Source of the DNA: an uncultured Dehalococcoidaceae bacterium | Lineage (GTDB): Bacteria; Chloroflexota; Dehalococcoidia; Dehalococcoidales; RBG-16-60-22 | Length of the DNA stretch: 64,000 nucleotides | NCBI GenBank assembly: GCA_964500415.1 | Contig: CAZCOB010000001.1 | Span: forward strand, 15,204-79,203 | Direction of reading: 5' to 3' | In this document: positions 16,233 through 48,404 of the stretch, in pieces | Position numbering within the stretch: the stretch's first letter is position 1 | How the letters are laid out: each line of letters opens with the position of its first letter | Notes under the pieces: generated by a model | Told to the model about the DNA's origin: nothing | Seen by the model: the letters and a program-made list of their open reading frames with translations, nothing else | Database searches by the model: none | Position numbers and translations under genes: made by a program

Positions 16233-16323
<91 letters not shown>

Positions 16324-26929: not shown

Positions 26930-27009
26930 ATTCCATTATTCCTTGATAAGGCGTAAGGTGAAATAATATATAAGATTGTCAAATAATAATAAAAGATTTT
27001 TAGCAACCA

Positions 27010-27096
27010 GATATTGCTTTCAGAGTATATCATACAGCCATGTACTTCAAGATACTATTAGTCTCTATCTTTTGGACTACAAAGTATATCTTTTGG
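27010..27096 (-). promoter_or_regulatory. Regulon promoter block A, driving the dctP operon
   Basis: Gene-strand GTCCAAAAGATAGAGACTAATAGTATCTTGAAG-N15-TATACT; homologous to blocks B and C. Confidence 0.75.
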
Positions 27097-29000: not shown

Positions 29001-30071
29001 TTAATTCAACTTATACTCTAAGTATTCATATTTACAGGGTTGTCCCCAGGTAGCATACAGCACTCCGTCTTCCGGCACCATGATTTCCGCGGCGAGCGTC
29101 TCGCCAAGCTGCACTTCCATGTCGGTGTGTTTACAGATAGAACGCGGGTAATCGGTATGGTCGGTCAGGAACTCTTCCATTAACTCGACAGTCAGTTCGC
29201 CGTAGTGTTCTTCCATGAGCCTCTTTAACCGTTGGATACGAACGTAACTGTCTCCCTCCATGAAACCGAACATTTTATCGCCCTTCTTAAATCTCTCCGT
29301 GATGTAATGGTTCGTGTGGACCAGCATGTCTCTTTCCGGCTGTATCACGTTATAGTCGCCCGGCCTGGTCTCAATTCCGATTATATCCCCCTCGGCGCTG
29401 GCAAAACCGTAGTAGAGTATACTGCGCCCGGCCCCACATACGACCCCCAGGGCATCACCAATCCTCTTCTGCCTCATCGCCTTCGGTATTACACAAGCAC
29501 AGGGTACGTTGAGTGTCTGCTGTTCGGCAGGACTCAACATGACATTTAAAACCATCCCCAGACCCGCCGTGGTCAGGGATAGCTCCCCGACTCCTCCGCC
29601 TGCGAACACCAGGGATAACTGCTCCAGGCCATCCGGGAATTTCGTTTTCACCAGGTCTATGCTGATTCCGGGATTGAGGTCGTACGTCTGCCCGATGATA
29701 GTCTTGCCTCCCCTGGTCGCATTCCCCGTGGCTATGAAAGACGTACAGAGCGCCGCTATACGCTGGTAATACATGCCTACCTCAAGCCTGCACCTCAACG
29801 CGAAAACCTCATCAAAACTCACCCCCGCTCCATCTGCCTGTCCCTTCAGCGTTTCAATTAACTCCGGGTCGAAACTCTCTACCAGCGGGAGATACTTCCT
29901 GGCATTGGCAATAATGTCTTCCTTGCCGGTTTTCTGAAACATGCTGATATCACTGAAAAGCGAATCGATAGAACCGATAAGGCTGTCCCGGCAGTACTCG
30001 CCATACTGCCTGCCGATTTCGTAAAAACTACCGCTACATTCGATTAATTTGTACTCTTTCCTTTCCTTCAC
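29001..30071 (-). CDS. C45 family autoproteolytic acyltransferase/hydrolase, paralog 1
   Basis: ALCTSF cleavage-site Cys, GQTYD, HTNHY, SICKH. Confidence 0.88.
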   Translation of the reverse strand: MKERKEYKLIECSGSFYEIGRQYGEYCRDSLIGSIDSLFSDISMFQKTGKEDIIANARKYLPLVESFDPELIETLKGQADGAGVSFDEVFALRCRLEVGMYYQRIAALCTSFIATGNATRGGKTIIGQTYDLNPGISIDLVKTKFPDGLEQLSLVFAGGGVGELSLTTAGLGMVLNVMLSPAEQQTLNVPCACVIPKAMRQKRIGDALGVVCGAGRSILYYGFASAEGDIIGIETRPGDYNVIQPERDMLVHTNHYITERFKKGDKMFGFMEGDSYVRIQRLKRLMEEHYGELTVELMEEFLTDHTDYPRSICKHTDMEVQLGETLAAEIMVPEDGVLYATWGQPCKYEYLEYKLN

Positions 30072-32371: not shown

Positions 32372-32441
32372 TCGCTCTAAACCTGTCTTTGAGTTCCATT
32401 TTAACTATATAAATCTTTACGGCATCAAGACACAAAAAGCC

Positions 32442-32527
32442 GATATTGCTTTTAGGGTATATTAATCTATTATGCGGTTCAAGATACTAATAGACTCCAC
32501 CTTTCGGACAATAATATATATCTTCCG
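32442..32527 (-). promoter_or_regulatory. Regulon promoter block B, driving amidohydrolase-rid-C45
   Basis: 62/83 ungapped identity to 27010-27092 by manual count; -10 TATACC. Confidence 0.75.
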
Positions 32528-32754
32528 TTACAATCGAATATAAAACTCTGGAAATTAGATTAAAAATTAAATCGATCTCGTTGATTTTTTTGCGGGTGCA
32601 TACATTGGCTTTATAAGAAACATATCATTATCATCACTTTCCCAGCCGCCCCCCGATACCGCGATAACTGTATCATACCGGGATTATTGTCAATCTGTTG
32701 GGGTAATATTTAAAGCTTATACTTTCAATCCCATCAAAAAGTACGTACTGAGTT

Positions 32755-32819
32755 GTCCAAAAGATGGAGGCTATTGGTATCTTGAAGTATAAAATACGTT
32801 GATATAATCTGAGAGTAAT
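32755..32819 (+). promoter_or_regulatory. Regulon promoter block C, driving the ABC operon
   Basis: GTCCAAAAGATGGAGGCTATTGGTATCTTGAAG-N15-TATAAT-CTGAGAG; inverted copy of A and B. Confidence 0.75.
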
Positions 32820-32990
32820 TGTAAGTTGCTCGTGTTTCTCTCAATGAAAATTCCAAACATAGAAGCAACAGCGTGACGGTCTGAATCTGTGAAGAAGGAG
32901 GTGCAATATTTAAATAATACGCAATAGTGTGACCACTTGTTTACAAAATGGACTGAAAAGTCTCTCCCCTGTAATAAAGGAGGAAAAATA

Positions 32991-34667
32991 GTGAAAAAGT
33001 ATTTTATAATTATTTGTGCGATAGTAATAATCGGCTCGCTGATACTTGGCGGTTGTGCCGAACCTGAACCAGAACCGGCACCAGCGCCGGCACCGGCACC
33101 GAGTCCAGAACCGGCACCGAAACCGAGTCCAGAACCGGCACCGGCACCGAGTCCAGAACCGGCACCGGCACCGAGTCCAGAACCGGCACCGGCACCTGAT
33201 CAGCCAAAGTACGGCGGCACGTGGACCATCATGTCGGACACAACTCCCACCAATGTTAACCCCCCGGCCGATGGAGGTTCTTTGTCGACCAGGCATCTTG
33301 TCCCCTGCCTGGAGCCATTACTCCGGCTAGGCGAAGGTGGAGTTCTCCAAGGGCATCTGGCGGAATCCTGGGACGTTTCTCCCGACGGTACCGCCATCAC
33401 CTTCCACCTGCGCCAGGGCATCAAGTTCCATGATGGCACCCCCTTTAATGCCGAGGCGGTCAAATATAACCTGGAAGCAACCGCGGCATCAGGCCTTTGG
33501 GGCGTTGGTATCCTGAACGTTGCCACATCTTATGACATCCTTGACGACTATACCATCCGGGCGAATCTTGACGGCTTCAATTACAGTTACATAACCGCGC
33601 TGGCCGGGCTTGCCGGCATGATCGCATCGCCAACAGCTTTACAGATACCCGCCGAGGACGAAGAACTCCCCGAGCTCCACATGGTAGGCACCGGGCCTTT
33701 CATCTTCGATAGCTTCAAGCGGGATGACTATGTCAAATATACGAAGAACCCGAACTACTGGCAGGAAGGTAAGCCCTACCTCGATGCGGTTGTCTTGAGG
33801 AACATCGCCGACCGAACCGTCGCGTTGATGGCTTTCCAGGCGGGCGAGGCGGACGAGTGGGCGACAGGACTCCAACTGGCTACGTCGAATATGCTGGAAG
33901 AGCAGGGCTACATTATTAGATCATATCCGCTGCGGTTCCATTTTGCCATGGTGTATGACAGCGCGGACCCGGCTTCTCCATTTGCCAACCAAAAAGTACG
34001 CGAAGCTGTTCACTATGGTGTGGACAAGCAGACTCTGGTTAATGGTATCGGCGGCGGCGCAAAGAGAGGATTTACCGCTCTGTATCAGATGGCTGAGCCA
34101 GGCGACCCGTGGTATTGCCCCGAACTGCCGATTCGCGCATACGATCTGGCAAAAGCCAAGCAGATGCTGGCTGACGCCGGTTACCCCGATGGGATAAAGA
34201 CAACGCTCATTTCGGACACCTTTGCGGAGACGAACTTCTTAGAGGCCCTGCAAATCGAGCTTAAAAAGATGGGCATCGATACCGAACTTGACATTGCGGA
34301 TTTTGGTAGGATAACCTCTCTAGAGATGGGCGGTTGGGAAGGTCTGTTGCATCCGGGTTTCCCGACCTCCGATACCATCTCGGGTCTTAACTCCCGCTGG
34401 GGCGACCCGTCCTTCTTCGTCAGTATGTACAAGCCGGCCGGATGGGATGACATGTGGGCTGCAATGATGGCCGAGGTTGACGATAACAAGCGTATAGAAA
34501 TGATGAAAGATATAGTTAGACTCGACTATAATGAGTGTTTAACCTTTACCTGGAGGGCGGATGCTCCTTTCGGAGTGAATGATGGAACCAGTCATGGTTT
34601 CGTACTTCACGCCGGTGGTGCCATGGACATCTGGTGGCCGGAATTCGTTTGGAAAGAACAAAAATAA
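32991..34667 (+). CDS. Family 5 (Opp/Dpp) ABC substrate-binding lipoprotein with a Pro-rich linker
   Basis: Lipobox LGGC; LAESWDVS..LRQGIKFHDGTPFNAEAVK, GTGPF; GGAGG RBS before GTG 32991. Confidence 0.93.
   Translation: MKKYFIIICAIVIIGSLILGGCAEPEPEPAPAPAPAPSPEPAPKPSPEPAPAPSPEPAPAPSPEPAPAPDQPKYGGTWTIMSDTTPTNVNPPADGGSLSTRHLVPCLEPLLRLGEGGVLQGHLAESWDVSPDGTAITFHLRQGIKFHDGTPFNAEAVKYNLEATAASGLWGVGILNVATSYDILDDYTIRANLDGFNYSYITALAGLAGMIASPTALQIPAEDEELPELHMVGTGPFIFDSFKRDDYVKYTKNPNYWQEGKPYLDAVVLRNIADRTVALMAFQAGEADEWATGLQLATSNMLEEQGYIIRSYPLRFHFAMVYDSADPASPFANQKVREAVHYGVDKQTLVNGIGGGAKRGFTALYQMAEPGDPWYCPELPIRAYDLAKAKQMLADAGYPDGIKTTLISDTFAETNFLEALQIELKKMGIDTELDIADFGRITSLEMGGWEGLLHPGFPTSDTISGLNSRWGDPSFFVSMYKPAGWDDMWAAMMAEVDDNKRIEMMKDIVRLDYNECLTFTWRADAPFGVNDGTSHGFVLHAGGAMDIWWPEFVWKEQK
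33093..33194 (+). repeat. Coding tandem repeat, 4 x 24 bp (PSPEPAP[A/K])
   Basis: CCGAGTCCAGAACCGGCA at 33099, 33123, 33147 and 33171. Confidence 0.95.
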
Positions 34668-34702
34668 ATAGAGATAGCTGAAGAAAAGGAATATATACAT
34701 AT

Positions 34703-34739
34703 CGGTGGAGGGGCCGGACACGCTCTAACCCCTCCACCG
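34703..34739 (+). terminator. 11-bp GC stem-loop after the SBP gene (terminator or mRNA stabiliser)
   Basis: CGGTGGAGGGG / CCCCTCCACCG; no U-tract. Confidence 0.6.
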
Positions 34740-34966
34740 GAGTAGAACTTAATAGCTTTATTCTGGTTCTCTGCCTGAATGAACCTTCTGGAATGTATGA
34801 AATAGAAATCAGATTTAAATATAACCTATAACTATAGAAACAACAGAGTTCTTTGATGGTTCAAAGGGTGCCAGTACTTCGAAAGTAACTCCGCCGGCGC
34901 GGTACCTTTTGTAATACACTTCAAATAATAACATGTAAGCGAAAATAAGCCAGCGAGAGGTCTTGA

Positions 34967-35929
34967 ATGGCAGGCTACGTGATTCGCCGATTATTCATGG
35001 GTCTTATTGTCGTCATAATAGTGACCATCCTGGTATTTCTCCTGATACGGCTTCTGCCGGGTGACCCGCTCTTGGTGTATCTAACCCAGCAGCAATACAG
35101 GGATACGGCTTACGACCCTGCCCAGCTGGCACAATTGCAGGCACAGTATGGCCTGGACAAACCACTGCCCATACAGTATATATCCTGGATAGCGGATATG
35201 TTCCACGGCGATTTCGGAGAATCAATTAATCTTAAGGAGCCGGTGTCGAAGCTGATTGGAGAACGCTTACCGGTGACCCTACACCTGAGTATCATTGGCG
35301 CCATATTCGCTACAGTTTTCGGTATAGGTTTCGGCATAATCTGCGCTTTAAGGCGAGGCACGTGGCTGGATACCGTGCTTACTTTCCTGGCAAACATAGG
35401 TATAACTATGCCCAGCTTCTGGGCAGCTATTCTGCTCATATATCTGTTCGGCCTCAAGCTGGGCTGGGTGCCGATCGGGGGTTACACATCACCGTTCGAG
35501 GACTTCTGGTTGAACACCCGCCAGATAGTATTGCCGGTTTTCTGCATGTCGCTCTTCGGCCTGGCATCAAACACGCGCCTGACGCGTTCCTGTATGCTTG
35601 AGGTCGTCGCTCAGGATTATATTCGCACAGCCTGGGCTAAAGGCCTGAAAGAGCGGGTTATCGTCCTCAGGCATACCATTAAGAATGGCTTAATACCCTT
35701 AATTGCCAATATGGGTTTCCTGGTCGCCGGCCTGTTCGGCGGTTCGGTGATTATCGAGACTTTATTTAACATTCCCGGTGTCGGGAGATTATTGACAACA
35801 GCTATTCTCGGGCAGGATTACATGATTGTTCAGGCCAGCACTTTGCTGATGGTGGTACTGATAACATTCGCCAACATTGCAGTGGATATTTCCTACGGTT
35901 GGCTTGACCCCAGGATAAGATATGATTAA
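34967..35929 (+). CDS. ABC permease, DppB/OppB-like
   Basis: RLLPGDP, QDYIRTAWAKGL EAA-type motif. Confidence 0.93.
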   Translation: MAGYVIRRLFMGLIVVIIVTILVFLLIRLLPGDPLLVYLTQQQYRDTAYDPAQLAQLQAQYGLDKPLPIQYISWIADMFHGDFGESINLKEPVSKLIGERLPVTLHLSIIGAIFATVFGIGFGIICALRRGTWLDTVLTFLANIGITMPSFWAAILLIYLFGLKLGWVPIGGYTSPFEDFWLNTRQIVLPVFCMSLFGLASNTRLTRSCMLEVVAQDYIRTAWAKGLKERVIVLRHTIKNGLIPLIANMGFLVAGLFGGSVIIETLFNIPGVGRLLTTAILGQDYMIVQASTLLMVVLITFANIAVDISYGWLDPRIRYD

Positions 35930-35940
35930 GGAGTTCTGGT

Positions 35941-36855
35941 ATGGCAGATAGTCCAAACCCCCGCGCCCCGCTAAGCGATACTGTGACGTCGGACGTACCT
36001 TTAAAAAAGTACAGTGAATTTAAGCGCACCGTAGCCGTATTCTTCGGGCGGCCGCTCCCCGTCGCTGGCCTGGTAATTATCACCATTTTTATTATCATTA
36101 CTATTTTCGGCCCCTGGCTGGCTCCCTACGACCCTCTTGATATGGATGTCATGAGCTCGTTAGCGCATCCCAGCAGCAATCACCTCCTCGGCACCGACGA
36201 AATAGGCCGAGATACCTTGAGTCGTTTGATTTACGGCGCGCGTACTTCGCTGTTCATCGGCATCGTGGTCATCGGTGTATCTTCGGCTATTGGTGTACTG
36301 CTGGGTCTTATTGCCGGGTATTCCACCGGAGCACTGCATCATGTAATTATGAGAATTACCGATGGTCTGATGGCCTTTCCGAGTATAATACTGGCTCTCC
36401 TTATCGCCGGGTTGCTCGGAGGTGGTCTGCAGAATGTCATTATAGCTCTGACCGTTGGTATGATAGCGCCGGTTATCCGTATAACATGTGGTACGGCCAT
36501 GTCTATTAAAGAAAATGAATATATTATGGCTGCACGGGCAATGGGCGTGAGCAAACTGAATATTATGATTAGCGAAATTTTACCTAATTGCTTCGCTCCG
36601 ATACTGGTGATGATGACCATGGGAATTGGTGCGACCATTCTGGCGGAGGCGGGGCTCAGTTTTCTGGGGGTAGGTATCACCCCACCGACACCGGTCTGGG
36701 GACGCATGGTAAATGACGGCTATCGATATCTCCTTACCAATCCCGAGTTGTCAATAGCACCTGGCCTGGCGGTCATGCTGGTAGTCTTCGGTTTCAATAT
36801 GATGGGTGATGGCCTGCGGGATGCACTCGACCCGAGGCTGAGAGGTGTTATCTAG
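35941..36855 (+). CDS. ABC permease, DppC/OppC-like
   Basis: HLLGTDEIGRD, EYIMAARAMG. Confidence 0.93.
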   Translation: MADSPNPRAPLSDTVTSDVPLKKYSEFKRTVAVFFGRPLPVAGLVIITIFIIITIFGPWLAPYDPLDMDVMSSLAHPSSNHLLGTDEIGRDTLSRLIYGARTSLFIGIVVIGVSSAIGVLLGLIAGYSTGALHHVIMRITDGLMAFPSIILALLIAGLLGGGLQNVIIALTVGMIAPVIRITCGTAMSIKENEYIMAARAMGVSKLNIMISEILPNCFAPILVMMTMGIGATILAEAGLSFLGVGITPPTPVWGRMVNDGYRYLLTNPELSIAPGLAVMLVVFGFNMMGDGLRDALDPRLRGVI

Positions 36856-36887
36856 TTATTGCTCAAAGAATAAGCAAGGAAGTTGAC

Positions 36888-37880
36888 ATGGAAGCTCTGC
36901 TAAATGTTGAAAATCTTAAGACTTACTTCAATACCTACCACGGACAGGTTAAAGCTGTAGATGGCGTCTCCTTTCATATAAATCAGAAAGAGACTATTGG
37001 TATAGTGGGAGAGAGTGGTTGTGGTAAATCGGTGAGTATGTTGTCAGTAATGCAGTTAATCACCACGCCACCGGGTGATATAGTTGACGGCAAGGTTATC
37101 TTCGAAGGGAATGATTTGCTCCAGTACAATGCTAAAGGCGATGTAATGTGTTCTGTCCGCGGTGGGAAAATTAGCATGATATTTCAAGAGCCGATGACCT
37201 CGCTTAACCCAGTACTGACTATTAACCGGCAGTTAACCGAAACGCTGGAGCGGCATCTCGGTATGGACCCCCGTGCGGCCAGGCTGCGCGCTATTGACCT
37301 GCTGAAGCTGGTGGGTATCCCTGAAGCTGAAAAACGCATTGATGCCTACCCGCACCAGTTCAGCGGCGGTATGCGCCAGCGAGTGATGATTGCCATGGCA
37401 ATCTCCTGTAATCCGGAAATACTGATCGCCGATGAACCTACCACAGCTCTAGACGTAACCACTCAGGCGCAGATATTAGACCTCATGAAAAAAATGACAG
37501 AGAACTTGAATACTTCTCTTATTATCGTCACACACAATATCGGCGTAGTCGCCCGTTATGCCGAGAGGATTTATGTCATGTACGCCGGTCGCATCGTTGA
37601 GTCTGGCCATTCCTACGATATATTTGACAACCCGTGCCATCCATACACAATAGGTCTTCTTAAGTGCGTACCTCAGTTGGGAGAAACACGAAACACGAGA
37701 AAACTGGTACCGATTACCGGTATGCCTCCCAACCTGATTGATATGGCCCCAACTTGCGCTTTTCTCCCAAGATGTACTTATCGAACTGAAAGGTGTAAAC
37801 GAGAGCCTTGGCCTCCGTTAAGACAAATAGATGGTCAGCATTATATATCGTGTTATGTTGATACTTGGGAGAAGAAATGA
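36888..37880 (+). CDS. ABC ATPase, DppD-like
   Basis: [29 protein letters not shown] and Cys-rich tail. Confidence 0.94.
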
Positions 37881-38860
37881 AAGAAGCAGCGGATGACTCA
37901 GTAATAGAAGTAAAAAACCTGAAAATGTACTTCCCCATAACAGCAGGCATATTGCGGCGTAAAGTCGGCGATATTAAAGCTGTAGATGACGTGAGTTTCA
38001 AGATAAAGAAAAATGAAACGCTTGGCCTAGTTGGTGAAAGCGGGTGTGGCAAGACCACTGTTGGTCGCTGCATCTTACGCCTTTATCGACCTACCTCCGG
38101 AAATATCACATTTCTCGGACGCGATATATCAAAGATGCCGGAACACCATATTAGACCGATGCGCATACACATGGGCGCTATTTTCCAGGACCCGTATAGC
38201 TCACTTAATCCACGCCAGACGGCCCGCAATATCGTCGGTAAGCCGTTGAAAACCCATAACCTCGTAGGAATGAATGAGTTTAATACCAAGGTATCCGACC
38301 TTTTCAATCTCGTCGGTCTTAACCCCGTAATGATGAACCGCGTTCCTCACGAGTTTAGCGGCGGCCAACGACAGCGTCTGGCTATTGCACGTGCATTAGC
38401 TTGCCAGCCTTCACTGGTAGTCTGTGACGAGCCTATTTCAGCTCTCGACGTTTCGATTCAAGCTCAGATAATTAATATCCTTGAAGAAATCCAGGATATG
38501 ATGGGATTGACGTATCTCTTTATTGCCCACGACCTCTCCGTGGTGCAGCATATCAGCACTCGTGTAGCTGTCATGTATCTGGGACGCATCGTGGAGATAA
38601 CAAACGCGGAGGAACTCTACTCCAATCCGCTGCATCCATATACCAAGGCTTTGCTTTCGGCGGTACCGATACCGAATCCGCATATTGAAAAAAACCGCCA
38701 GCGTATCGTCTTGAAGGGCGAGGTGCCCAGTCCGGCTAATCCGCCGAGTGGTTGTCACTTCCATCCACGCTGCGATTTAGCTACTACAGATTGCATGGAG
38801 ACAAAGCCGACCTTAAGGGACGTTGGTAACGGCCACGAGGTGGCCTGTTTCAGGGTATGA
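37877..38860 (+). CDS. ABC ATPase, DppF-like
   Basis: GESGCGKT, FSGGQRQR, HPYT, CHFHPRC; ATGA overlap with the upstream gene. Confidence 0.94.
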   Translation: MKEAADDSVIEVKNLKMYFPITAGILRRKVGDIKAVDDVSFKIKKNETLGLVGESGCGKTTVGRCILRLYRPTSGNITFLGRDISKMPEHHIRPMRIHMGAIFQDPYSSLNPRQTARNIVGKPLKTHNLVGMNEFNTKVSDLFNLVGLNPVMMNRVPHEFSGGQRQRLAIARALACQPSLVVCDEPISALDVSIQAQIINILEEIQDMMGLTYLFIAHDLSVVQHISTRVAVMYLGRIVEITNAEELYSNPLHPYTKALLSAVPIPNPHIEKNRQRIVLKGEVPSPANPPSGCHFHPRCDLATTDCMETKPTLRDVGNGHEVACFRV

Positions 38861-38952
38861 TATCAGTTATCGAAAGGAGTAATTAAACAACTAAAAGGTC
38901 TTTTAGGACCTACTTCGCATTGTTGTTCCTGTTATTTTCTTGATTATCATTA

Positions 38953-39054
38953 GACGGGCAGGCTCTGCCAGGGGAGAATCAGGCAAAGGCTGGTGCTGGC
39001 GCCCCTACCATTGGCAGCCTGATGCACAATTGGTCAAGTGGTATCCTGCCTGTC
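38953..39054. other. Candidate structured RNA element upstream of aor
   Basis: Outer stem GACGGGCAGG/CCTGCCTGTC plus competing inner stems. Confidence 0.4.
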
Positions 39055-39172
39055 CCTACTTCTCGTTTCATTGAATATAGTCCGTGATTATATTTAGCAA
39101 CTCGTTATGAATTCATCCACATGAATATATATTAACTATTCAGTTAGTGATTTTTACAGAAAGGAGTACGAA

Positions 39173-41023
39173 ATGGTTAGAGGAGGATATATGGGAAAGC
39201 TCCTGTGGATTGACCTTTCCACAGGAAAAATAGAAGTGGAACAGCCGGATGACAACCTCTACAGGGATTTTATCGGAGGCTACGGGATAGGTTCGCGATT
39301 ACTTTACAGCAGGATGAAGGGGGGAGTGGACCCGCTGGGGCCGGACAATATATTTGGCCTGATGACCGGTCCGCTAACCGGCACACCGGCAATCAGCGGT
39401 ACCAGGTATGCAGCCATGGGCAAGTCGCCGCTGACCGGCGGCTGGGGAGACGCCAACTCCGGAGGGCATTTCGGCCCCAGGCTCAAGTTTGCCGGCTTTG
39501 ATGGGGTGTTCTTTACCGGCATTGCGGACAAGCCGGTATACCTGCTGCTGGACAATGGCAAGGCCGAATTGAAAGATGCAGGCCAGTTCTGGGGCAGAGA
39601 TACGTACTATACAGAAGATACCCTCAGGGCGGAATACGGTGACGCCGCCGAAGTCGTATCTATCGGTCCGGCCGGTGAAAAACTTTCCCCCGTGGCCTGT
39701 ATTATTACCCGCCACGGGGATGCCGCCGCACGCTCGGGGCTTGGTACGGTAATGGGCTCGAAAAAACTAAAAGCAGTGGTTGCCAGGGGAGACCGGGAAG
39801 TGCCTCTAGCCGATAGCGAGGCCGCCAACAGAATCAGGAAAGAACACATGGAAGCTTCTAAAATGGCATTCAGCGGCATGAACGTTTACGGCACCTCGGG
39901 ACACGGAGACACGTCGGCTATGAGCGGCGATACCCCCGTTAAAAACTGGGGCGGGATAGGCGTTAACGAACTGTCTGATGTCTCCGGCCTCCATAAGGAT
40001 AAGATGATTGCCAATCTCGACTACAGGACGGGCTGCTGGCACTGCCCGTCGGCCTGCAAGGGCATCCTTAAAGCCGGAACGGAATACCCCTATCCGGCCG
40101 GCAGTAAAAGGGTGGAGTATGAGACTATCGGCGCTTTTGGTGCTAACTGTTTGAACACTAATGCCGAGGCAATAACCATGGCAGCCCACCTCTGCGACAG
40201 CTACGGTATGGATACAATCTCTGCCGGTAGTATCATCGCCTTCGCGATGGAACTGTATGAGCACGGCATTATCACCAGGAAAGACACGGACGGCATTGAC
40301 CTCAAGTGGGGCGACCCTGATGCCCTGGTTGCCATGACGGAAAAACTGGTAAAGCGCGAGGGAATCGGGGACATTCTTGCGGAAGGCGTTAACATTGCGG
40401 CAGAGAAAATCGGCAAAGGTGCGGAGGAATATGCGGTACATGCCGGCGGACAAGAACCCGGAATGCATGACCCCAAATTAAAAGGCCATCCCCTGCAATA
40501 TCCCCGCCACCCCACCGCCACCGTTTACAAGATGGATTCAACTCCGGGCCGGCACACCGGGGCTTTTGGACCAGACGGCTTTGAAAGGCATCTCAACAAT
40601 TCCATGGGTACCTGCCTGTTCGTTTATTTATCCCCTCTCCCCTCGAATCCCACGGTAGGCTCTCCTTACGCAGCTTCTATGATGAAAGCCGTCACCGGCT
40701 GGGACCGCTCCTGGGAAGAACTGCTCAAGGCGGGTGAGAGAATTGCCAACATGAGGCACGTCTTTAACCTTCGTGAGGGTATAAACCCCGTGAAGAGTTT
40801 TATGCATGACAGAGTGCTGGGCATTCCTCCCCAGCAGGAAGGTCCGCTGGCCGGGGTAACCATTGACGAAAAGTCGGAGAGCCTGTGGAACCTGGGAGCC
40901 CTGGATTGGGATTGGACAACCGCCATACCGAGTCGGAAGAAGCTGCTGGAACTCGGCCTCGACGATATAGCGGATGAGATTGCACCACCGCTGAAAGCGC
41001 CGGGCTTCGGGCCGTCAGGGTAA
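39173..41023 (+). CDS. aor: Aldehyde:ferredoxin oxidoreductase (tungsten AOR family)
   Basis: KSPLTGG, AARSGLGTVMGSKKLKA, CWHCPSAC, EYET, DSYGMDTIS, SMGTC (fourth FeS Cys). Confidence 0.93.
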   Translation: MVRGGYMGKLLWIDLSTGKIEVEQPDDNLYRDFIGGYGIGSRLLYSRMKGGVDPLGPDNIFGLMTGPLTGTPAISGTRYAAMGKSPLTGGWGDANSGGHFGPRLKFAGFDGVFFTGIADKPVYLLLDNGKAELKDAGQFWGRDTYYTEDTLRAEYGDAAEVVSIGPAGEKLSPVACIITRHGDAAARSGLGTVMGSKKLKAVVARGDREVPLADSEAANRIRKEHMEASKMAFSGMNVYGTSGHGDTSAMSGDTPVKNWGGIGVNELSDVSGLHKDKMIANLDYRTGCWHCPSACKGILKAGTEYPYPAGSKRVEYETIGAFGANCLNTNAEAITMAAHLCDSYGMDTISAGSIIAFAMELYEHGIITRKDTDGIDLKWGDPDALVAMTEKLVKREGIGDILAEGVNIAAEKIGKGAEEYAVHAGGQEPGMHDPKLKGHPLQYPRHPTATVYKMDSTPGRHTGAFGPDGFERHLNNSMGTCLFVYLSPLPSNPTVGSPYAASMMKAVTGWDRSWEELLKAGERIANMRHVFNLREGINPVKSFMHDRVLGIPPQQEGPLAGVTIDEKSESLWNLGALDWDWTTAIPSRKKLLELGLDDIADEIAPPLKAPGFGPSG

Positions 41024-41035
41024 TAGGAGGAAATA

Positions 41036-41965
41036 ATGTCAAAAGGGATAATTGTATACCTCTCTTATACCGGAAATACCAAGCAGATTGCCGAGGCTAT
41101 TTACAAAGGCATGAGTCCTGCAATTGACCAGTGCGACATTGTAAAACTGCGCAAGACAGACCCTAAGATTCTAACTGGTTACGACCTGATTGGTATCGGC
41201 AGCCCGGTACGACTCGGCAAAATGCCGTTCGAGCTCAAAGAATTTATCGCCGGTATGAATTCCCTGGAAGGTAAGCATTGTTTCGTTTTAAATACTCACG
41301 CCGCCCTTCCAGTAAATTTTATGCGGGAGGCAATAACCGCTCTAAAAGAGAAGGGGTTGGTCGTTATCGGTTTTAAAAACTGGTACTGTTCCGTCTATCT
41401 ACCCTACGTGCCCAAGCCGTACTTCACCGACGGACATCCGGATGACATCGACCTTAAAGAGGCCGAGGACTTCGGTCGGGAGATGGTCGAGCGCAGCCGT
41501 AGAATACATGACGGCGAGACCGACCTCGTCCAGAAGCTGCCTGAAGGCGAAGAGTACGATAAGATTTACGGCGGCATGATGATAGGTACGTTGCCTGCGG
41601 GTGTCATGGAGGCGCGAGCCCAGGGATTCAGCATCGACATGAATAAATGTACCCGCTGCAATTACTGCGTTGAGCTCTGCCCTACCAACAGCATCGATTT
41701 CTCCACAGACCCGCCGGTTTTTCATCCGTGCGAGCAGTGCTGGTTGTGCGAGCAGACCTGCCCTGAAGGCGCTATATCATTCAACTACCCGCCGCTCCAC
41801 AAATCTCACAACATCATGGTAGCGCAGAATTATGCTACGTCGCTGGAAGCCGCCGAGAAAGCCGGGCGTTTCCGTCCGCTGGTCAAACCCGAGGAGGTTG
41901 GCTGGGAAACGGCGCTGTACGTAACGAAAAAACCGCCGCGTTTTAAGCTTGCCGACCCTATCTGA
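41036..41965 (+). CDS. Flavodoxin-ferredoxin fusion (EFR1-like)
   Basis: SYTGNT flavodoxin loop, GSPV; CTRCNYCVELCP and CEQCWLCEQTCP. Confidence 0.88.
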   Translation: MSKGIIVYLSYTGNTKQIAEAIYKGMSPAIDQCDIVKLRKTDPKILTGYDLIGIGSPVRLGKMPFELKEFIAGMNSLEGKHCFVLNTHAALPVNFMREAITALKEKGLVVIGFKNWYCSVYLPYVPKPYFTDGHPDDIDLKEAEDFGREMVERSRRIHDGETDLVQKLPEGEEYDKIYGGMMIGTLPAGVMEARAQGFSIDMNKCTRCNYCVELCPTNSIDFSTDPPVFHPCEQCWLCEQTCPEGAISFNYPPLHKSHNIMVAQNYATSLEAAEKAGRFRPLVKPEEVGWETALYVTKKPPRFKLADPI

Positions 41966-42004
41966 TAAAAATATCAGGTAAAATTTAGTAAAAGGAGATA
42001 GATT

Positions 42005-42667
42005 ATGGCTGGTGAAACCTTGGAGGCGAAGGTCAGGGACCTGGAAGCGAAGGTTAAGAATTTGGAGACGGAGCTTACTGCCGTGCATGATATACAGGAG
42101 ATAAAAAAATTGCAGAGAACATACGGTTATTACCTGGATAATCGCCTGTGGGATGATATTGTAGACTTGTTTTCCGATAATACGGAGTCGCTGGAGATAA
42201 GCGATAGCGGTGTCTACCTGGGTAAAGCGGGGGTCGAGAGATTCTTCAAGGGTTTCCTGAGCGGAGGCGGCCTACCGCCCGGACGAGGGAGCCTGGGCAC
42301 CCACATGCAGCTTCAGGGCGTTGTCAATCTGGACCCGGGAGGCGATACCGCCAGGGGAAGATGGCAATGCGTTATTCTGCTGGCCGTGCCCTACAATAAT
42401 GAACTGACGGCAATGGTCGGCTTCGGCGTGTATGAAGTGGAGTATATCAAGGAAAACGGCGTCTGGGCGTTCAAGAAAATGCACTTCTATCTTATCTTCC
42501 GAACGCCGCTTCACGAAGGCTGGGCCATGACGCCGGTGGTTTATTCCATGGCCAGCGGGACTCCGGATAAACCTTCGACGGTCTACAAGCCGCTACCGGA
42601 TAGATATATCGTGCCGTTCCACTATAGCAACCCCGTAACCGGTAACGAACCGCGTATTACCTCTTAA
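42005..42667 (+). CDS. NTF2-like (SnoaL_4/LinA/BaiE-type) protein with N-terminal coiled coil
   Basis: DIQEIKKLQRTYGYYLD, TARGRW, YEVEYIKENGVWAFK. Confidence 0.85.
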   Translation: MAGETLEAKVRDLEAKVKNLETELTAVHDIQEIKKLQRTYGYYLDNRLWDDIVDLFSDNTESLEISDSGVYLGKAGVERFFKGFLSGGGLPPGRGSLGTHMQLQGVVNLDPGGDTARGRWQCVILLAVPYNNELTAMVGFGVYEVEYIKENGVWAFKKMHFYLIFRTPLHEGWAMTPVVYSMASGTPDKPSTVYKPLPDRYIVPFHYSNPVTGNEPRITS

Positions 42668-42705
42668 TTTCCGGGTAATAATACCGGACATGTGGAATTA
42701 AACAT

Positions 42706-42729
42706 TCAGGCGTTGCCCTTGACGCCTGA
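42706..42729 (+). terminator. Intercistronic stem-loop
   Basis: TCAGGCGT-N8-ACGCCTGA followed by TTATT. Confidence 0.45.
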
Positions 42730-42759
42730 TTATTCGTAAATTTATTACAGGAGGGTGAA

Positions 42760-43209
42760 ATGGCAGAGTCCAAATACGGGAAATATGTCATATCGAATCC
42801 GAAGATTGCCGAACAGCTGGCGCACCATTCCAAAGAAGCCGACTATCCCTGGAAAAACCCCGCCGAAGTCTATCTGGATGGCGAAATGGTGCCCGGATGT
42901 CCGGTGTGGTTCGACATTAACTGGATTTATGATACCCACCTGCCTTCCGTTCCAGGCTGGGTCAAGCCGCATAAACACGAGCAAAATGAGATACTCCTTT
43001 TTATTGCGACTAATCCGGAGGGCGACCTGGGCGGGGAAATCGAGATTACGATAGGCAAGGGCAAGGATAAAGAAAAACACAGCTTCAGCCACACCGCGGC
43101 TGTCTTCATACCGGCGGGGATAACACATTGCCCCATTGTTTATAAAAGTGTTGACAAGAATAAACCACAGATGATGATGGCCCTGTTATTTAATCCCGAG
43201 TACACATAG
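42760..43209 (+). CDS. Uncharacterised cupin-like protein, paralog 3
   Basis: HKHEQNE..ATNPEGDLGGEIE..EKH..IPAGITHCP. Confidence 0.8.
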   Translation: MAESKYGKYVISNPKIAEQLAHHSKEADYPWKNPAEVYLDGEMVPGCPVWFDINWIYDTHLPSVPGWVKPHKHEQNEILLFIATNPEGDLGGEIEITIGKGKDKEKHSFSHTAAVFIPAGITHCPIVYKSVDKNKPQMMMALLFNPEYT

Positions 43210-43292
43210 CATCGCTATCAAGTGGCTGACCGATAAAACCTATATTTACCGATATTTATTTTTAATAACCAGAATTTGAAAAGGAGCTTTTT

Positions 43293-44480
43293 ATTAAAAG
43301 ATTCCGTTTTCCCTCGTTTTCAGGATTTCTGATACTCTTTATCCTGGCCCACTTCATGCACCACCTCCTGGGGGCACTGCTGACACCTCTATTGCCGTTC
43401 ATCCGCGACGAATTTGTTCTTGATTACACCCAGGCAGGATGGTTGCTCTCTGCTTATTCGTGGTCATACGGCATCAGCCAGATTCCGGCGGGATACCTTA
43501 CCGAAAAAATAGGTCTGCGCCTGATTATGACCATAGGTATCTCGGGCGTGGCGCTTGTCGGGATAGTAATAGGCCTTTCGCCGTCTTACTATATAATGGC
43601 TGTCTTACTGGTAATTCTAGGGCTGCTGGGCGGCGGTTACCATCCGGCTTCGGCGCCTTTGGTTTCCGAACTGGTAGAACCGGAAAAAAGGGGCGTGGTC
43701 CTGGGAATCCACCAGGTAGGTGGTACGTGCAGCTTTTTCCTGACTCCCCTCATTGCGGTTGGAATCGCCGGCTACTTCGGCTGGCGCGGCTCGTTCGTCG
43801 GGCTGGCCCTGATTACGTTAATTTTCGGTATCATATTTTATATACTCCTGAGGCGCTGGAGGAGTGGCGGAAAATCCGAACCCGTACAAACCGAGAGTCA
43901 TATAATAACACCGCCCCCGGCGAATCATGCCCGCCACCTGATAGTGTTTTTAATCCTGGGTATAACCAGCTACGCCACTATCCTTTCCGTGATATCGTTC
44001 CTCCCGTTATTTGCCGTGGATTACCTGAATGTCAGTGAGGAAATCGGGGCAACCCTGTTAGCGATTGTTCACTTTGCCGGATTGCTGGCGGGTCCGCTGG
44101 GGGGTTACCTCTCCGACAGGTTCGGAATGGTTAAGGTGATGGTAATAACCGTCCTTATTGGCGGCCCCCTGCTTTACCTGCTGTCACTGGTGTCCTACGG
44201 ATGGGTTATTTACGTCCTGTCGTTTGCTATCGGCATGTCCATGTATATGACCATGCCCGTCGCCGAGTCATATATAATAGGATATGTTCCGGAAAAGAAA
44301 CGTCCCAAATTTCTCGGGTTCTACTACTTCGGCAGCCGGGGCGGCGGTGGCGCAATAACACCCATAATAGGTTATTTAATTGACCGATTCAGCTTTTCTA
44401 CCAGTTTCACCGTTGCAGGGGCCTTTTTAGTCGCGGTAACACTTGGTTGTATCGGCCTGCTATGGAAAAACCGGAGATAA
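43293..44480 (+). CDS. MFS transporter, paralog 2, probable ATT start
   Basis: YHP, GYLSDRFG; frame open to ATT at 43293 with AAGGAG 6 nt upstream; the ORF track starts it at 43356. Confidence 0.85.
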   Translation: MKRFRFPSFSGFLILFILAHFMHHLLGALLTPLLPFIRDEFVLDYTQAGWLLSAYSWSYGISQIPAGYLTEKIGLRLIMTIGISGVALVGIVIGLSPSYYIMAVLLVILGLLGGGYHPASAPLVSELVEPEKRGVVLGIHQVGGTCSFFLTPLIAVGIAGYFGWRGSFVGLALITLIFGIIFYILLRRWRSGGKSEPVQTESHIITPPPANHARHLIVFLILGITSYATILSVISFLPLFAVDYLNVSEEIGATLLAIVHFAGLLAGPLGGYLSDRFGMVKVMVITVLIGGPLLYLLSLVSYGWVIYVLSFAIGMSMYMTMPVAESYIIGYVPEKKRPKFLGFYYFGSRGGGGAITPIIGYLIDRFSFSTSFTVAGAFLVAVTLGCIGLLWKNRR

Positions 44481-44521
44481 GGAAACCGTTATGTTAAAAA
44501 ATATAAGGAGGGAATAAAGCA

Positions 44522-44953
44522 ATGGGTAAATATGACAAGTATTTTATGACGGAGGTTAAACTCCCGGCGGGCAAACAGAAGTTCGCCGATGAGTATGCCG
44601 GTACGTACTCTCACGTAGCCTGGCTGGACTCTAGCAAAATCGAAGGTGCGTTTTATACCGAGGTCGTCTGGTATTACAAGCCGAGGAAAAGCATAGTGGG
44701 AGCTCATACGCACGATTTTGACGAAGTAATTGCATTCTTCGGCAGCAACCCTGATGATATCCACGACCTGGGAGGCGAGGTGGAAATGTGGATGGGCGGC
44801 GAGAAGCATATCATTACTAAAAGTTGCCTTGTCTTTGTCCCCAGGGGGATGGAGCACTGCCCCCTGTCCTTCAACAGGGTTGACCGGCCCATCTTTCACT
44901 TCACGGCGGGAACCGGGGGTAAATATATATCGTCAATTGAAAGAGAAGATTAA
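44522..44953 (+). CDS. Uncharacterised cupin-like protein, paralog 4
   Basis: HTHDFDE..GSNPDDIHDLGGEVE..EKH..VPRGMEHCP. Confidence 0.8.
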   Translation: MGKYDKYFMTEVKLPAGKQKFADEYAGTYSHVAWLDSSKIEGAFYTEVVWYYKPRKSIVGAHTHDFDEVIAFFGSNPDDIHDLGGEVEMWMGGEKHIITKSCLVFVPRGMEHCPLSFNRVDRPIFHFTAGTGGKYISSIERED

Positions 44954-45009
44954 TCTACTGAATATATTTTAGTTATAACCCATAGGGCGCCGGAATAGGT
45001 TTAGCAGTC

Positions 45010-46227
45010 ATGAAACGTTTGCTGGCTACCATTGATTTTCAACGTTACCGACGGTTTGATACCAGAATCTGGATTATCACCGCCGTCGGTCTTCTTAACG
45101 TAGCCGGCTTTTCTCTCAGCCTGCCTTTCCTCTCTTTGTACCTGTACCAGGAACGCGGAATACCCATGACCGTGGTGGGGACTATCATCCTTATCAGCGG
45201 TCTCTGTTCCGCCGTAACCCAGATTTTCGGCGGCGTAATCTCTGACCGCCTCGGGCGCCGACCTCTGCTCATCGGCGCCGCCATGACGGCGGCATTGTTA
45301 TTCATAGCAATGGCAATCTTAATCGCTGCCGAGGCTCCGGTCTGGGCTATCGTTATCGTATATGCTACCGGCCAGTCGGCGATGATGATAACACGACCCG
45401 CCAACCAGGCAATGGTAGTTGATATTTCCCCTAAAAAACAGCTCGCGGAAGCTTACGGCATCCTTAGAGTAGGTATGAACCTGGGCTGGGCGGTTGGCCC
45501 GGCGATTGGTGGTCATCTACTGGTATTCTTACCCTACCCGTGGCTTTTCGGGGTAACGGCTCTGACGAGCTTTATCAGCTGCGGGCTGATATTTTTCCTG
45601 GTAAAAGAGTCATTCGGCGGAGCAGTGGAACAGGTAAACGTGCGGACTATTTTCCTGGCGGTCAGGGACCGGCATTTACTGAAATTCACTTTATTGAGCC
45701 TGCTGGTCTTTCTGGTAATGGGACAGATGATAAGCACTCTATCAATCTTCACTGTCGACCACGTGGGGTTTACCACGGCCCAATACGGCATGCTGCTTAC
45801 AACTAACGGCTTAATCGTGGTGGTATTGCAGTATCCCGTGGCTGTTAATGCCGGCCGGATAGCGAAATATAAAGCCCTTGCCCTGGGGGCCCTGTTTTAT
45901 GCGATGGGTTACCTGCTATTCGGCTGGGTCGGGAGTTTTACGCTGGCTATCATCGCCATGATAATCGTCAGCTTGGGTGAGGTCATCTTCTCCCCCGTAT
46001 CGCTCTCGGTTGTCGGGGAGCTTTCTCCGCAGGACCGGCGGGGACGATACATGGCGTTTTTCGGCCTGAGCGAGGGGCTGGGGTTCTCGGCGGCGTCGCT
46101 GCTCGGTGGGGTTCTCCTCGACGGGTTTCCCGCGAAACCCCTGTTTATATGGGGGACAATCGCACTTATAGCACTCTTGGCCGCGGCAGGTTTTCAGCGA
46201 TGGGGCAGCGCCAGTAAGCAGGCATGA
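45010..46227 (+). CDS. MFS transporter (different subfamily)
   Basis: GVISDRLGRR motif A; about 12 TM segments. Confidence 0.9.
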   Translation: MKRLLATIDFQRYRRFDTRIWIITAVGLLNVAGFSLSLPFLSLYLYQERGIPMTVVGTIILISGLCSAVTQIFGGVISDRLGRRPLLIGAAMTAALLFIAMAILIAAEAPVWAIVIVYATGQSAMMITRPANQAMVVDISPKKQLAEAYGILRVGMNLGWAVGPAIGGHLLVFLPYPWLFGVTALTSFISCGLIFFLVKESFGGAVEQVNVRTIFLAVRDRHLLKFTLLSLLVFLVMGQMISTLSIFTVDHVGFTTAQYGMLLTTNGLIVVVLQYPVAVNAGRIAKYKALALGALFYAMGYLLFGWVGSFTLAIIAMIIVSLGEVIFSPVSLSVVGELSPQDRRGRYMAFFGLSEGLGFSAASLLGGVLLDGFPAKPLFIWGTIALIALLAAAGFQRWGSASKQA

Positions 46228-46246
46228 AGATTGAAATAAGGGGGCA

Positions 46247-47305
46247 GTGATGAAAAAGAGAAAGAGGTTCAATATTATCGAATGCGGGGGTACTGCCTTT
46301 GATATTGGCAAGCAATACGGGACTGCCTGCCGGGACAGTTTTATTACTTCGATTAACTCCATGTTTGAAGAATACATCGTATCCAATAAAACCAGCCAAG
46401 AAGAAATAATCGCCACGTTGAGAAAATACATTCCCCTGGTGGAAAGCTTCGACCCCGATTTGCTCGAAATGCTCAAAGGCCAGGCGGAGGGCGCCGGGGT
46501 TTCCTTGGAAGAGATTTTCTTACTCAGGTGTAATTTCGAGCTGAGTTTTTATTATCAGCGCATGAAGACCTTTTGTACGTCCTTTGCCGTTACCGGCAGG
46601 GCTGCGAAAGACGGAAAGACGATTATCGGTCAGAACTTTGACGCCACCGTCGGCAGGACGATAGACCTTGTGAAAGTAACGCATGCCGATGGACTGAAGC
46701 AGCTGTCTTTGATTTTCTGGGGGGCCTGCGAGCTTACCTTGAACTCGGCGGGTTTGGGGATGGTCTTAAATGTTGTGGTGAGTCCGGTGGAGGAACAGCT
46801 TCTCAACCTGCCTGCCTGTTGTGTTATCCCGAAGGCAATGAGGCAAAAGAGAATCGGCGATGCCCTGGGAGTCTTCTGCGCCGCCGGACGCAGCATGATG
46901 TACTACTGCCTTGCCGGTAAGGAGGGTGATATTATCGGCATCGAAACCATGCCCGACGATTATAACGTGATACAGCCGGTTAAGGATGTACTGGCTCATG
47001 CCAATCATTATCATACCGACCGTTTTAAGAAGGGCGAACTGGTCTATATGGGCGCTCCGAGCAGCTACATTCGTGAGCCGCAAATGAGGAGGTTGATTGA
47101 TAAACATTACGGAAATATCACGCTGGAGCGGATGATGGAAATCATGTCCGACCATAATCATTACCCGAAGGGAATATGCAATCACGCCCTGGAGGGGTCT
47201 ACCGCGGAGACGCTGGCTTCGGTGATAATGGTGCCTGAAGATAACGCCATGTACGTAACCTGCGGGCACCCCTGCGAGTACGAGTATGAAGAATATAAAT
47301 TATAA
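46247..47305 (+). CDS. C45 family autoproteolytic acyltransferase/hydrolase, paralog 2
   Basis: TFCTSF, GQNFD, HANHY, GICNH. Confidence 0.9.
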   Translation: MMKKRKRFNIIECGGTAFDIGKQYGTACRDSFITSINSMFEEYIVSNKTSQEEIIATLRKYIPLVESFDPDLLEMLKGQAEGAGVSLEEIFLLRCNFELSFYYQRMKTFCTSFAVTGRAAKDGKTIIGQNFDATVGRTIDLVKVTHADGLKQLSLIFWGACELTLNSAGLGMVLNVVVSPVEEQLLNLPACCVIPKAMRQKRIGDALGVFCAAGRSMMYYCLAGKEGDIIGIETMPDDYNVIQPVKDVLAHANHYHTDRFKKGELVYMGAPSSYIREPQMRRLIDKHYGNITLERMMEIMSDHNHYPKGICNHALEGSTAETLASVIMVPEDNAMYVTCGHPCEYEYEEYKL

Positions 47306-47309
47306 GCTA

Positions 47310-48404
47310 TTACCCGCTTGGCCGGTCAGCGATATACGACAGCAGGCGTCCGGGATTATCTATCGTCATGGTATTAACCTGCGTTTCCGTGACTCCCTGC
47401 CGCAGCATTACAGGTACGATGTTGCGCAAAATATGGGCGTAACCGAACCCGCCGTAAGCAGTCAGGAGTACCTTTAAAAAGGTATCGTGGGACAGGAGAA
47501 TGTGCTCCAGGTACCCTTCGGCGATAAGCTGCATTATGGCGTCGATGCGTTGCGACTCGCCGGGGAAACTCATCACGCTTTCACCAAGCAGGAAGGGCGG
47601 GAACAGGTGGCCGAAGGTGTCGAACTCGATGAAACAGCCGGCATCGGCAATGCGGCGGGCGGTATCCAGGTTTAAACCCATGATGTCGATATGGCAGATG
47701 ACCGTCCTGTCCGGTCGGCCGCCGTTCTCCCGTAAGATGTGTAGTATCTCCTGTATTAGCTGGTTGTCCAGGCCGGGCGGGTGAATCGTCAGGGGTGCCC
47801 CGGTCTGGCTTTGAGCCGCCGCACAGGCACGCAACAATCGGCGCTCATCTTCACGCAGGGCGGGAGTCAGGCCTATCTCGCCGATGATGCCGGCGCATAT
47901 TCCGGTATCATCAATACCCACGGTCAGGTCGCGCACGAGCCCATCACAAAGTTGTGCCTCGGTCAAAGCGGCTACCTCTGTAGAATACTGTAGTCCCATG
48001 TAGTAGCCGGTGCCCATGATTATGTTAAGGCCGGTAGCCTGTGCCAATCGTTGCAACCCCAGAGGATTATCACCACCGACGGGTCTGGTACTGACATCGA
48101 CAATGGTGTTGCCCCCGGCCTGTTTGTAGGCCAGAAGCTCTTTCGTCAGAACAGCCTCATCCGGTGATTGCAGGCAGTCCAGGTTACTTAAAGCATGCGC
48201 GCGTACCCAGGCAAGGTTTTCGAGTGTGACCGGAGCGTTGGCCAGCCGCTTTTCGGCCGGTTCGACCGGCTCAAAGTAAAAATTCTCCCGGGCGTCAACG
48301 AAGATATGTTCATGAGGAAGGGTTATACCCAGCTTATTGGCATCAACCGGTCCCGTGACCGTTTGAGCCTTGAGAGACTTATGCGTTGTTATCGTTATTT
48401 CCAC
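47310..48404 (-). CDS. Phosphotriesterase-related protein (Php family)
   Basis: LGITLPHEHI, IGEIG, TIH, ICH, LSHD. Confidence 0.9.
   Translation of the reverse strand: MEITITTHKSLKAQTVTGPVDANKLGITLPHEHIFVDARENFYFEPVEPAEKRLANAPVTLENLAWVRAHALSNLDCLQSPDEAVLTKELLAYKQAGGNTIVDVSTRPVGGDNPLGLQRLAQATGLNIIMGTGYYMGLQYSTEVAALTEAQLCDGLVRDLTVGIDDTGICAGIIGEIGLTPALREDERRLLRACAAAQSQTGAPLTIHPPGLDNQLIQEILHILRENGGRPDRTVICHIDIMGLNLDTARRIADAGCFIEFDTFGHLFPPFLLGESVMSFPGESQRIDAIMQLIAEGYLEHILLSHDTFLKVLLTAYGGFGYAHILRNIVPVMLRQGVTETQVNTMTIDNPGRLLSYIADRPSG

Follow-up and report, generated by a model that had tools for sequence, protein, structure and literature searches.

The window analysed in this study is a stretch of 64,000 nucleotides (nt) from an uncultured Dehalococcoidaceae bacterium, carried on contig C1 of genome G000 (2.49 Mb in 130 contigs, 90% complete). 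At positions 39173-47305 the window holds a cluster of eight genes that starts with aor, the gene for a homologue of the tungsten-containing aldehyde:ferredoxin oxidoreductases (AOR), and that an earlier note on this DNA had described as an operon of co-directional genes with short gaps. Inspection of the open reading frames confirmed this arrangement: all eight are on the + strand, with gaps of 12, 39, 92, 146, 41, 56 and 19 nt in order. The genes encode the AOR homologue (39173-41023, 616 amino acids), an EFR1-family fusion of a flavodoxin with a 2x[4Fe-4S] ferredoxin (41036-41965, 309 amino acids), an SnoaL_4/NTF2-like putative lyase that resembles LdpA and BaiE (42005-42667, 220 amino acids; SnoaL4 below), a metal cupin (42760-43209, 149 amino acids), a major facilitator superfamily (MFS) transporter of the anion:cation-symporter (ACS)-like type (43356-44480, 374 amino acids), a second metal cupin (44522-44953, 143 amino acids), an MFS transporter of the efflux (DHA)-like type (45010-46227, 405 amino acids) and a C45-family Ntn acyltransferase/hydrolase (46247-47305, 352 amino acids). 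On the same strand, a sequence block termed block C and the SBP5-OppBCDF peptide-type importer (32746-38860) lead into a structured RNA at 38950-39057, a candidate cis-regulatory leader with strong covariation, and then into aor.

The product of 39173-41023 is a homologue of the AOR-type tungsten enzymes, in agreement with the earlier note. Both domains of the family were matched at full length (AFOR_N PF02730, 250 bits, E 2e-74; AFOR_C PF01314, 289 bits, E 1e-85), and the closest solved relatives were A. mobile WorL (9mqx), P. furiosus AOR (1aor) and 9g7j, with E values from 2e-93 to 6e-81, while FOR, WOR5 and BamB scored below these AOR-type structures. The cluster motif CwhCpsaC aligns with the CxxCxxxC of 1aor, and on the pterin side the EYE and DsyGmDtis (D..G.D) motifs are conserved. 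The fourth cysteine is found within NNSMGTC, in which Asn replaces the Asp of the second DxxGLC motif. Recoding was considered for the many AOR paralogues that seemed to have stops inside and was rejected, as the stop was the natural terminal one in the one case inspected.

The two-domain AFOR architecture, the CxxCxxxC and EYE motifs and the pterin motif are all shared with P. furiosus AOR and A. mobile WorL (WOR clade 87); the difference lies in the partner gene. The published partner types of the WOR enzymes are the L subunit only, a polyferredoxin, an FAD (flavin adenine dinucleotide) subunit and a bifurcating module (PMC12318220). A flavodoxin fused to 2x[4Fe-4S], as encoded beside this AOR, is unlike type M, in which a partner is absent, and differs from the four-cluster WorS polyferredoxin of type SL, the FAD subunit of type N (AorABC) and the Bfu module of type BF. 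Because the adjacent gene product contains a flavodoxin domain and two cluster motifs instead of four, the locus fits neither AorABC nor WorSL, and a domain search of the cluster found no gene for an FAD subunit.

The fusion protein itself scored 96.8 bits against the EFR1 model NF038196 (cut-off 75) over model positions 1-232 of 242, and has an intact SYTGNT loop for the phosphate of flavin mononucleotide (FMN) as well as two CxxCxxCxxxCP cluster motifs. Thus the label EFR1-like, which the earlier note had given it, was borne out: the protein shares with the family the whole-model score and both cofactor motifs. No full-length solved homologue was found. A literature search on EFR1 with flavodoxin and 4Fe-4S returned nothing, including any characterised family member, and a description of a fixed EFR1-AOR pairing was not found in the literature either.

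Among 61 related genomes (G000 included), orthologues of EFR1 (78-93% identity) and of AOR (81-90%) are present in the identical five, namely G000, G003, G010, G028 and G014, and the next AOR matches are paralogues at 69%. A metagenome scan with an EFR1 alignment yielded 23 contigs, which we mapped for gene context, and three types of context were recognised. The type A order, as in the window, is SBP5-OppBCDF-RNA-AOR-EFR1-SnoaL4-cupin-MFS-cupin-MFS-C45, followed by a convergent phosphotriesterase-family (PTE) gene; in G010 and G003 the entire 30-kb island around the cluster is colinear with that of the window at 80-92% protein identity, whereas G014 is rearranged. Type B, as in G014, reads C45-SBP5-OppBCDF-RNA-AOR-EFR1-SnoaL4-cupin and continues with a convergent Amidohydro_3-C45-RidA set and then Amidohydro_3-cupin-transaminase; here the tail genes (cupin, C45) and PTE lie upstream of opp, and the MFS genes are absent. 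In type C, DctQ-DctM, a GlcD/GlcF-like FAD/Fe-S dehydrogenase set and a cupin precede AOR-EFR1-SnoaL4; Opp genes and the RNA element are absent, and hydrolase, C45 and transaminase genes are absent within 10 kb.

Across these contexts AOR, EFR1 and SnoaL4 stay adjacent and in the same order, with protein identities of 64-93%. Of the 17 metagenome loci whose sequence reaches far enough upstream, 15 have AOR ahead of EFR1. SnoaL4 comes after EFR1 in all 19 loci with room for it, and wherever the context is type A or type B, oppF directly precedes aor. In a maximum-likelihood tree the AORs linked to EFR1, whichever of the three contexts they come from, group in a single clade with type C basal (support 93 in the Shimodaira-Hasegawa-like approximate likelihood ratio test, SH-aLRT), and this clade is sister to the C2-type AOR paralogues. 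It follows from the order and adjacency across loci that the unit kept by evolution is AOR-EFR1-SnoaL4, usually with the cupin, and the MFS-cupin-MFS-C45 tail is a lineage-specific addition of type A. The co-distribution in 5 of 61 genomes, the adjacency in 15 of 17 loci and the single AOR clade also support the dedicated AOR-EFR1 pairing predicted by the earlier note.

The repetition of these gene types could also reflect random scatter of expanded families, with no functional unit behind it. Indeed, about 70 paralogues of a single small (~145 amino acids) metal cupin are found in the genome, often in tandem runs, together with 15 AOR (this one included), 13 SnoaL_4, 13 DUF169 and 33 short-chain dehydrogenase/reductase (SDR) paralogues. 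Yet random scatter does not readily account for an AOR-EFR1-SnoaL4 order that is kept in three contexts, nor for C45 and ACS-like MFS genes that have exactly two copies each, all in the island. The synteny in genomes and metagenome loci already largely refutes this view, and we give it hardly any chance. Instead, we favour the reading that AOR, EFR1 and the NTF2-like protein, usually with the metal cupin, make up a conserved portable redox cassette with a lineage-specific tail, and we rate the odds that this is right at about even.

To place the third gene, we compared SnoaL4 (SnoaL_4 domain, E 1e-22) with solved structures. The best relatives were the LdpA diarylpropane lyases 8abv/8abt (E 5e-23, residues 10-214), followed by BaiE. 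LdpA of sphingomonads, an NTF2 lyase, works without a cofactor and releases formaldehyde (PMC9942872), and the homology of SnoaL4 to these enzymes (8abt-8abw) is full-length, including the C-terminal extension, the His-Asp dyad and both oxyanion-hole tyrosines: Asp45, His100, Tyr40 and Tyr143 of SnoaL4 align with Asp36, His93, Tyr31 and Tyr143 of SpLdpA. These four residues are invariant in 24 of 24 orthologues and variable among the 12 paralogues in the genome, which argues for a catalytic role. The host of SnoaL4, on the other hand, is an anaerobe with no lignostilbene dioxygenase context, unlike the hosts of LdpA. Five of the SnoaL_4 paralogues stand in tandem at C2:38006-41256.

The cupin at 42760-43209, the last core gene in types A and B, had zero Pfam matches and was assigned by paralogue identity and motif: it is 41% identical to the cupin at 23025-23495 in the left part of the island and has the same HxHxxxE...HC motif. 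Its orthologues (76-92%) follow SnoaL4 in 11 metagenome loci and in G010, G003, G028 and G014. The second cupin (44522-44953) scored 20.8 bits against Cupin_2, below the cut-off of 27.2, and contains HxHxxxE...H; its orthologue in G014 (86%) is located upstream of the opp genes. Across five aligned members the metal ligands H71, H73, E77 and H123 are invariant, as is the Cys. The nearest protein-atlas clusters to the cupin are unnamed and mainly from Chloroflexota, and literature on the weak cupin matches 6j4b and 7eqk gave nothing relevant. Further members of the expanded cupin family are found, for example, at C10:50436-52945, C19:28158-29014 and C112:1302-3547. Cupins were adjacent to AOR paralogues in 3 of 15 cases, which is not clearly above the expectation from 70 copies.

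The earlier note had read the AOR as the terminal, energy-conserving step for aldehydes made by the class-III (omega) transaminase of the island, with the EFR1 fusion as dedicated electron acceptor. The transaminase belongs to the group of gamma-aminobutyrate (GABA)/acetylornithine omega-aminotransferases, whose products are aldehydes; all five genomes with AOR and EFR1 also hold the transaminase (85-90% identity) and amidohydrolase orthologues, and in the type B contigs L109 and L113 the transaminase lies 8-10 kb from the cassette. In the window the cassette is downstream of the operon that bears block C. Co-occurrence with these genes held in five of five cassette genomes; in the opposite direction, G007, G015, G021 and G027, which are 77-81% complete, have transaminase orthologues, and the AOR/EFR1 core was not found in them. 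The transaminase also has its own adjacent SDR, and A/B/C blocks, the family to which block C belongs, were found in type A loci only. An AOR cassette that stands apart from the hydrolase and transaminase genes, the very arrangement that the earlier note had named as speaking against its proposal, is seen in the type C loci, which have no transaminase, hydrolase or C45 gene within 10 kb. Since the cassette occurs without those genes nearby, and the core was not found in four incomplete genomes with the transaminase, the link of the AOR to transaminase-derived aldehydes is context-dependent, and we regard such a terminal step as unlikely. From the homology described above, an LdpA/BaiE-like lyase would be at least as good a source of aldehyde as the transaminase. 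A GntG/LtaE-family aldolase dependent on pyridoxal phosphate at 16396-17451 (+), where the island begins on its left side (NF041359, 476 bits, cut-off 230), was also considered as an aldehyde source and was dropped, as it is not syntenic in G003. Left of the island, at 16097-16322, there are two tRNA-like direct repeats of 91 nt that are 71% identical.

The proposed energy-conserving role did not gain support. The AOR reaction yields no substrate-level ATP. A search of the genome, which is 90% complete, did not find RnfD, and the only possible electron sinks found there were [NiFe] hydrogenases.

Several observations weigh against the AOR-EFR1-NTF2 redox cassette. EFR1 is linked more tightly to SnoaL4 than to AOR, and EFR1 orthologues with no upstream AOR are present in three loci: L114, L118 and L057, the last on a genome contig. 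A group of EFR1 paralogues with 45-48% identity occurs without AOR in a recurrent module of cupin, M24/creatinase-like hydrolase, EFR1, cupin and SDR, so that EFR1 may serve cupin or NTF2 enzymes instead. In SnoaL4, Gly occupies the position of the Motif II glutamate (Glu139 in SpLdpA, Glu143 in the Na enzyme), which in LdpA is the acid catalyst and essential in mutagenesis (PMC9942872); because of this replacement SnoaL4 is not an LdpA orthologue. The AOR tree came from a quick maximum-likelihood search only, with SH-aLRT support, and the relatives compared are one bacterial family and metagenomes from similar habitats, which are not independent of each other. A scan for consensus promoters and terminators stayed near the shuffled level (27 versus 20.1 and 19 versus 16.1, respectively) and did not define transcription units. 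The EFR1 paralogue modules themselves were seen at L007:341-3928 and at L006, L008, L009 and L012-L014.

Some of these points could be accommodated if the AOR were a source of low-potential electrons and EFR1 fed a reductive step, either at the metal of the cupin or on the substrate of the lyase, so that an oxidation and a reduction are coupled. The link of EFR1 to SnoaL4, the tightest in the set (19 of 19), persists in L057 where AOR is missing, the paralogues are flanked by cupins, SDR and the M24/creatinase-like hydrolase, and the cupins of the cluster retain the full HxHxxxE...H site with the invariant Cys. However, we know of no cupin or NTF2 enzyme that has a flavodoxin-ferredoxin as its electron donor. 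NTF2 lyases of the kind to which LdpA and BaiE belong work without a cofactor (PMC9942872). Together these points make such coupling quite unlikely.

A further alternative is that the AOR runs in the reductive direction, with reduced EFR1 driving the conversion of an acid to an aldehyde, which the lyase and cupin would then process; the acid would be imported or come from the amide hydrolases. AORs reduce non-activated acids when given low-potential donors (PMC9295118). The linked transporters are of carboxylate-type families (TRAP, tripartite ATP-independent periplasmic; ACS-like MFS), and the products of amidohydrolases and of C45 enzymes are acids. On the other hand, the cassette encodes no obvious donor for EFR1, and oxidation is the favoured direction because the acid/aldehyde couple is very negative. 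We consider the reductive direction improbable, with a small chance of being right.

For the portable redox cassette, we infer the catalytic direction, electron path, lyase role and substrate from the genes and their motifs as follows. A compound would be imported, by the Opp-type ABC system here and by a TRAP system elsewhere, and its catabolism would lead to an aldehyde, which the NTF2 lyase most likely makes or prepares by an elimination or a retro-aldol type step. AOR would oxidise the aldehyde to the acid and pass the electrons from its [4Fe-4S] cluster to the two clusters of EFR1 and on to the EFR1 FMN, from which they may reach a sink in the cell, for instance a hydrogenase. Within this genus the cassette is docked behind opp inside an amide-hydrolase/transaminase island and extended by MFS-cupin-MFS-C45.

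How the cluster may be controlled was also addressed. The earlier note had stated that the cluster lacks the A/B/C promoter block of the left operons. Copies of this block are present at 27005-27092, 32437-32524 and, inverted, at 32746-32819 (block C, before SBP5/opp). There is indeed none in 38861-39172 before aor, the nearest being block C, but the cluster follows the Opp operon that has block C and has an RNA leader of its own. The cluster is probably transcribed from the opp promoter (block C) and, in addition, as a unit that starts with the conserved RNA.

An RNA element of about 100 nt is found in the oppF-aor gap of all type A and type B loci except G003, where the gap is 62 nt and the element is absent. 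The copy at 38950-39057 is the only one in the genome, which excludes a dispersed repeat, and there was no Rfam 15 match at E<=1. In an alignment of 20 sequences the RNA forms five helices, including a 7-bp loop-loop pseudoknot, with 95.9% of cells paired and 14 pairs showing compensatory change. None of 500 shuffles reached the observed level of pairing, and controls with slid positions gave 36-50%. Because of G-U pairs, the RNA is assigned to the aor strand.

Searches of 301 genomes of the order located full-length copies at about 19 places. Outside the AOR loci the RNA mainly precedes complete dctPQM TRAP operons, which are followed by very diverse catabolic genes. Loci with the RNA ahead of dctP-dctQ-dctM were L083, L085, L087, L089, L092, L095, L096 and L097, from other Dehalococcoidales. 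The sets that follow include a corrinoid protein with URO-D-type and MtmB/MttB-type methyltransferases, a GFO/MocA oxidoreductase with ADH and POR, a thiamine pyrophosphate enzyme with enolase, an aminotransferase, and a dihydrodipicolinate synthase (DHDPS) with a proline-racemase-like protein. The copies linked to DctP have a further motif in common, GGAGGUGAUAGCUUUCAAC, some 100 nt downstream, and the aor copy is without it. In L033 and L045 the RNA is flanked by dctP on one side and by a divergent regulator/kinase pair on the other; this pair shares 58-60% and 48-50% identity with the pair of the island.

A covariance model of the RNA gave matches confined to the order in a class-wide sample, weak variants of about 140 nt included. 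These weak variants (L121:5416-5554 on the - strand, L122, L123 and L124; 38-40 bits, 139-145 nt, with an insertion of about 50 nt) come from complete genomes of 1.4-1.5 Mb of the order and are not clear leaders. The RNA of L121 may be a stand-alone one, because it ends in a U-run and lacks an obvious regulated gene after it, and three loci with weak variants had no Rfam match. Another copy, 93% identical, was seen in L081:1564-10142 (G309), where two DUF169 genes and a distant member of the AOR family (28% identity) follow 5-6.5 kb downstream of it and a cupin is encoded on the opposite strand directly after the RNA.

Like 5' leaders of the riboswitch type, the RNA folds compactly over about 95 nt, combines covarying helices with unpaired blocks that are invariant, and sits 110-370 nt before transporter or catabolic genes on the sense strand. 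Unlike known riboswitches, it matches no Rfam 15 family and its downstream pathways are very diverse. Taken together, the RNA before aor is a previously undescribed structured RNA, well supported by the alignment, and a candidate regulatory class.

These elements can be combined into a more specific proposal, namely that AOR, EFR1 and the NTF2 lyase make up a hitherto undescribed kind of tungsten-enzyme system, in which the lyase, without a cofactor, cleaves a C-C or C-O bond to release an aldehyde which AOR oxidises at once with EFR1, a built-in FMN/Fe-S fusion, as its private electron outlet, that this set can be plugged into different uptake pathways, and that in this lineage its switch is a riboswitch of a new class, which the TRAP operons of Dehalococcoidales also use. 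We offer this only tentatively, as it is unlikely to be right in all its parts.

We then examined the tail of the cluster and its likeness to the left operons, which the earlier note had described as a mirror in cupin, NTF2, MFS and C45 content. The C45 at 46247-47305 is 58% identical to that at 29001-30071, and the MFS at 43356-44480 is 45% identical to that at 19665-20801. Since each pair represents the sole two copies in the genome, they are island-internal duplicates, and to this extent the mirror is real. The cupins of the cluster share 36-41% identity with the left-operon cupin at 23025-23495, and BLAST showed zero similarity between SnoaL_4 and the left-operon SnoaL_2, which match at the level of the superfamily only; with about 70 cupin paralogues in the genome, the cupin and NTF2 parts of the mirror are generic.

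Both MFS proteins were assigned by MFS_1. For the MFS at 43356-44480, found in type A loci only, the nearest NCBIfam models were PgtP and D-galactonate transporters, all below cut-off; for the single-copy MFS at 45010-46227 they were an H+ antiporter, YdeE and MdtH, also all below cut-off. The C45 protein at 46247-47305 scored 178.6 bits against the C45_proenzyme model NF040521 (cut-off 85). Its FCTSF aligns with the self-cleavage nucleophile Cys103 of the P. chrysogenum acyl-CoA:6-aminopenicillanic acid acyltransferase 2x1d, but the match to this fungal enzyme is just 53 bits. A hairpin of 10 bp with no clear U-tail is located at 42706-42729 between the SnoaL4 stop and the cupin start, and a promoter-like TTGACA/16 nt/GATGAT at 43151-43178 ahead of the MFS tail.

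The PTE-family hydrolase gene at 47310-48404 on the - strand (PTE domain E 7e-65) converges on the end of the cluster. Its orthologues lie beside C45 or cupin genes in G010, G003, G005 and G014 with varying arrangement. The G014 gene next to a cupin and a C45 gene (L080:6226-7427, contig C75) matches in two pieces, which may be due to a frameshift or a broken assembly.

Tungsten AORs are, to our knowledge, the only enzymes that interconvert non-activated acids and aldehydes, and their use is decided by their electron partners. The locus holds a variant of this known enzyme system, with a partner from the uncharacterised EFR1 family and an RNA leader that had not been described before. If true, a fixed flavodoxin-ferredoxin pairing would be a fifth AOR partner type and would give the EFR1 family its first concrete role. 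The RNA at the head of aor is a candidate for a new class of regulatory RNA in a phylum with few known ones, and could provide a handle on the inducers of the pathway. Finally, the fixed association with an LdpA-like lyase suggests a way in which Dehalococcoidia of sediments, as strict anaerobes, may dispose of the aldehydes that arise from the breakdown of complex organic matter.

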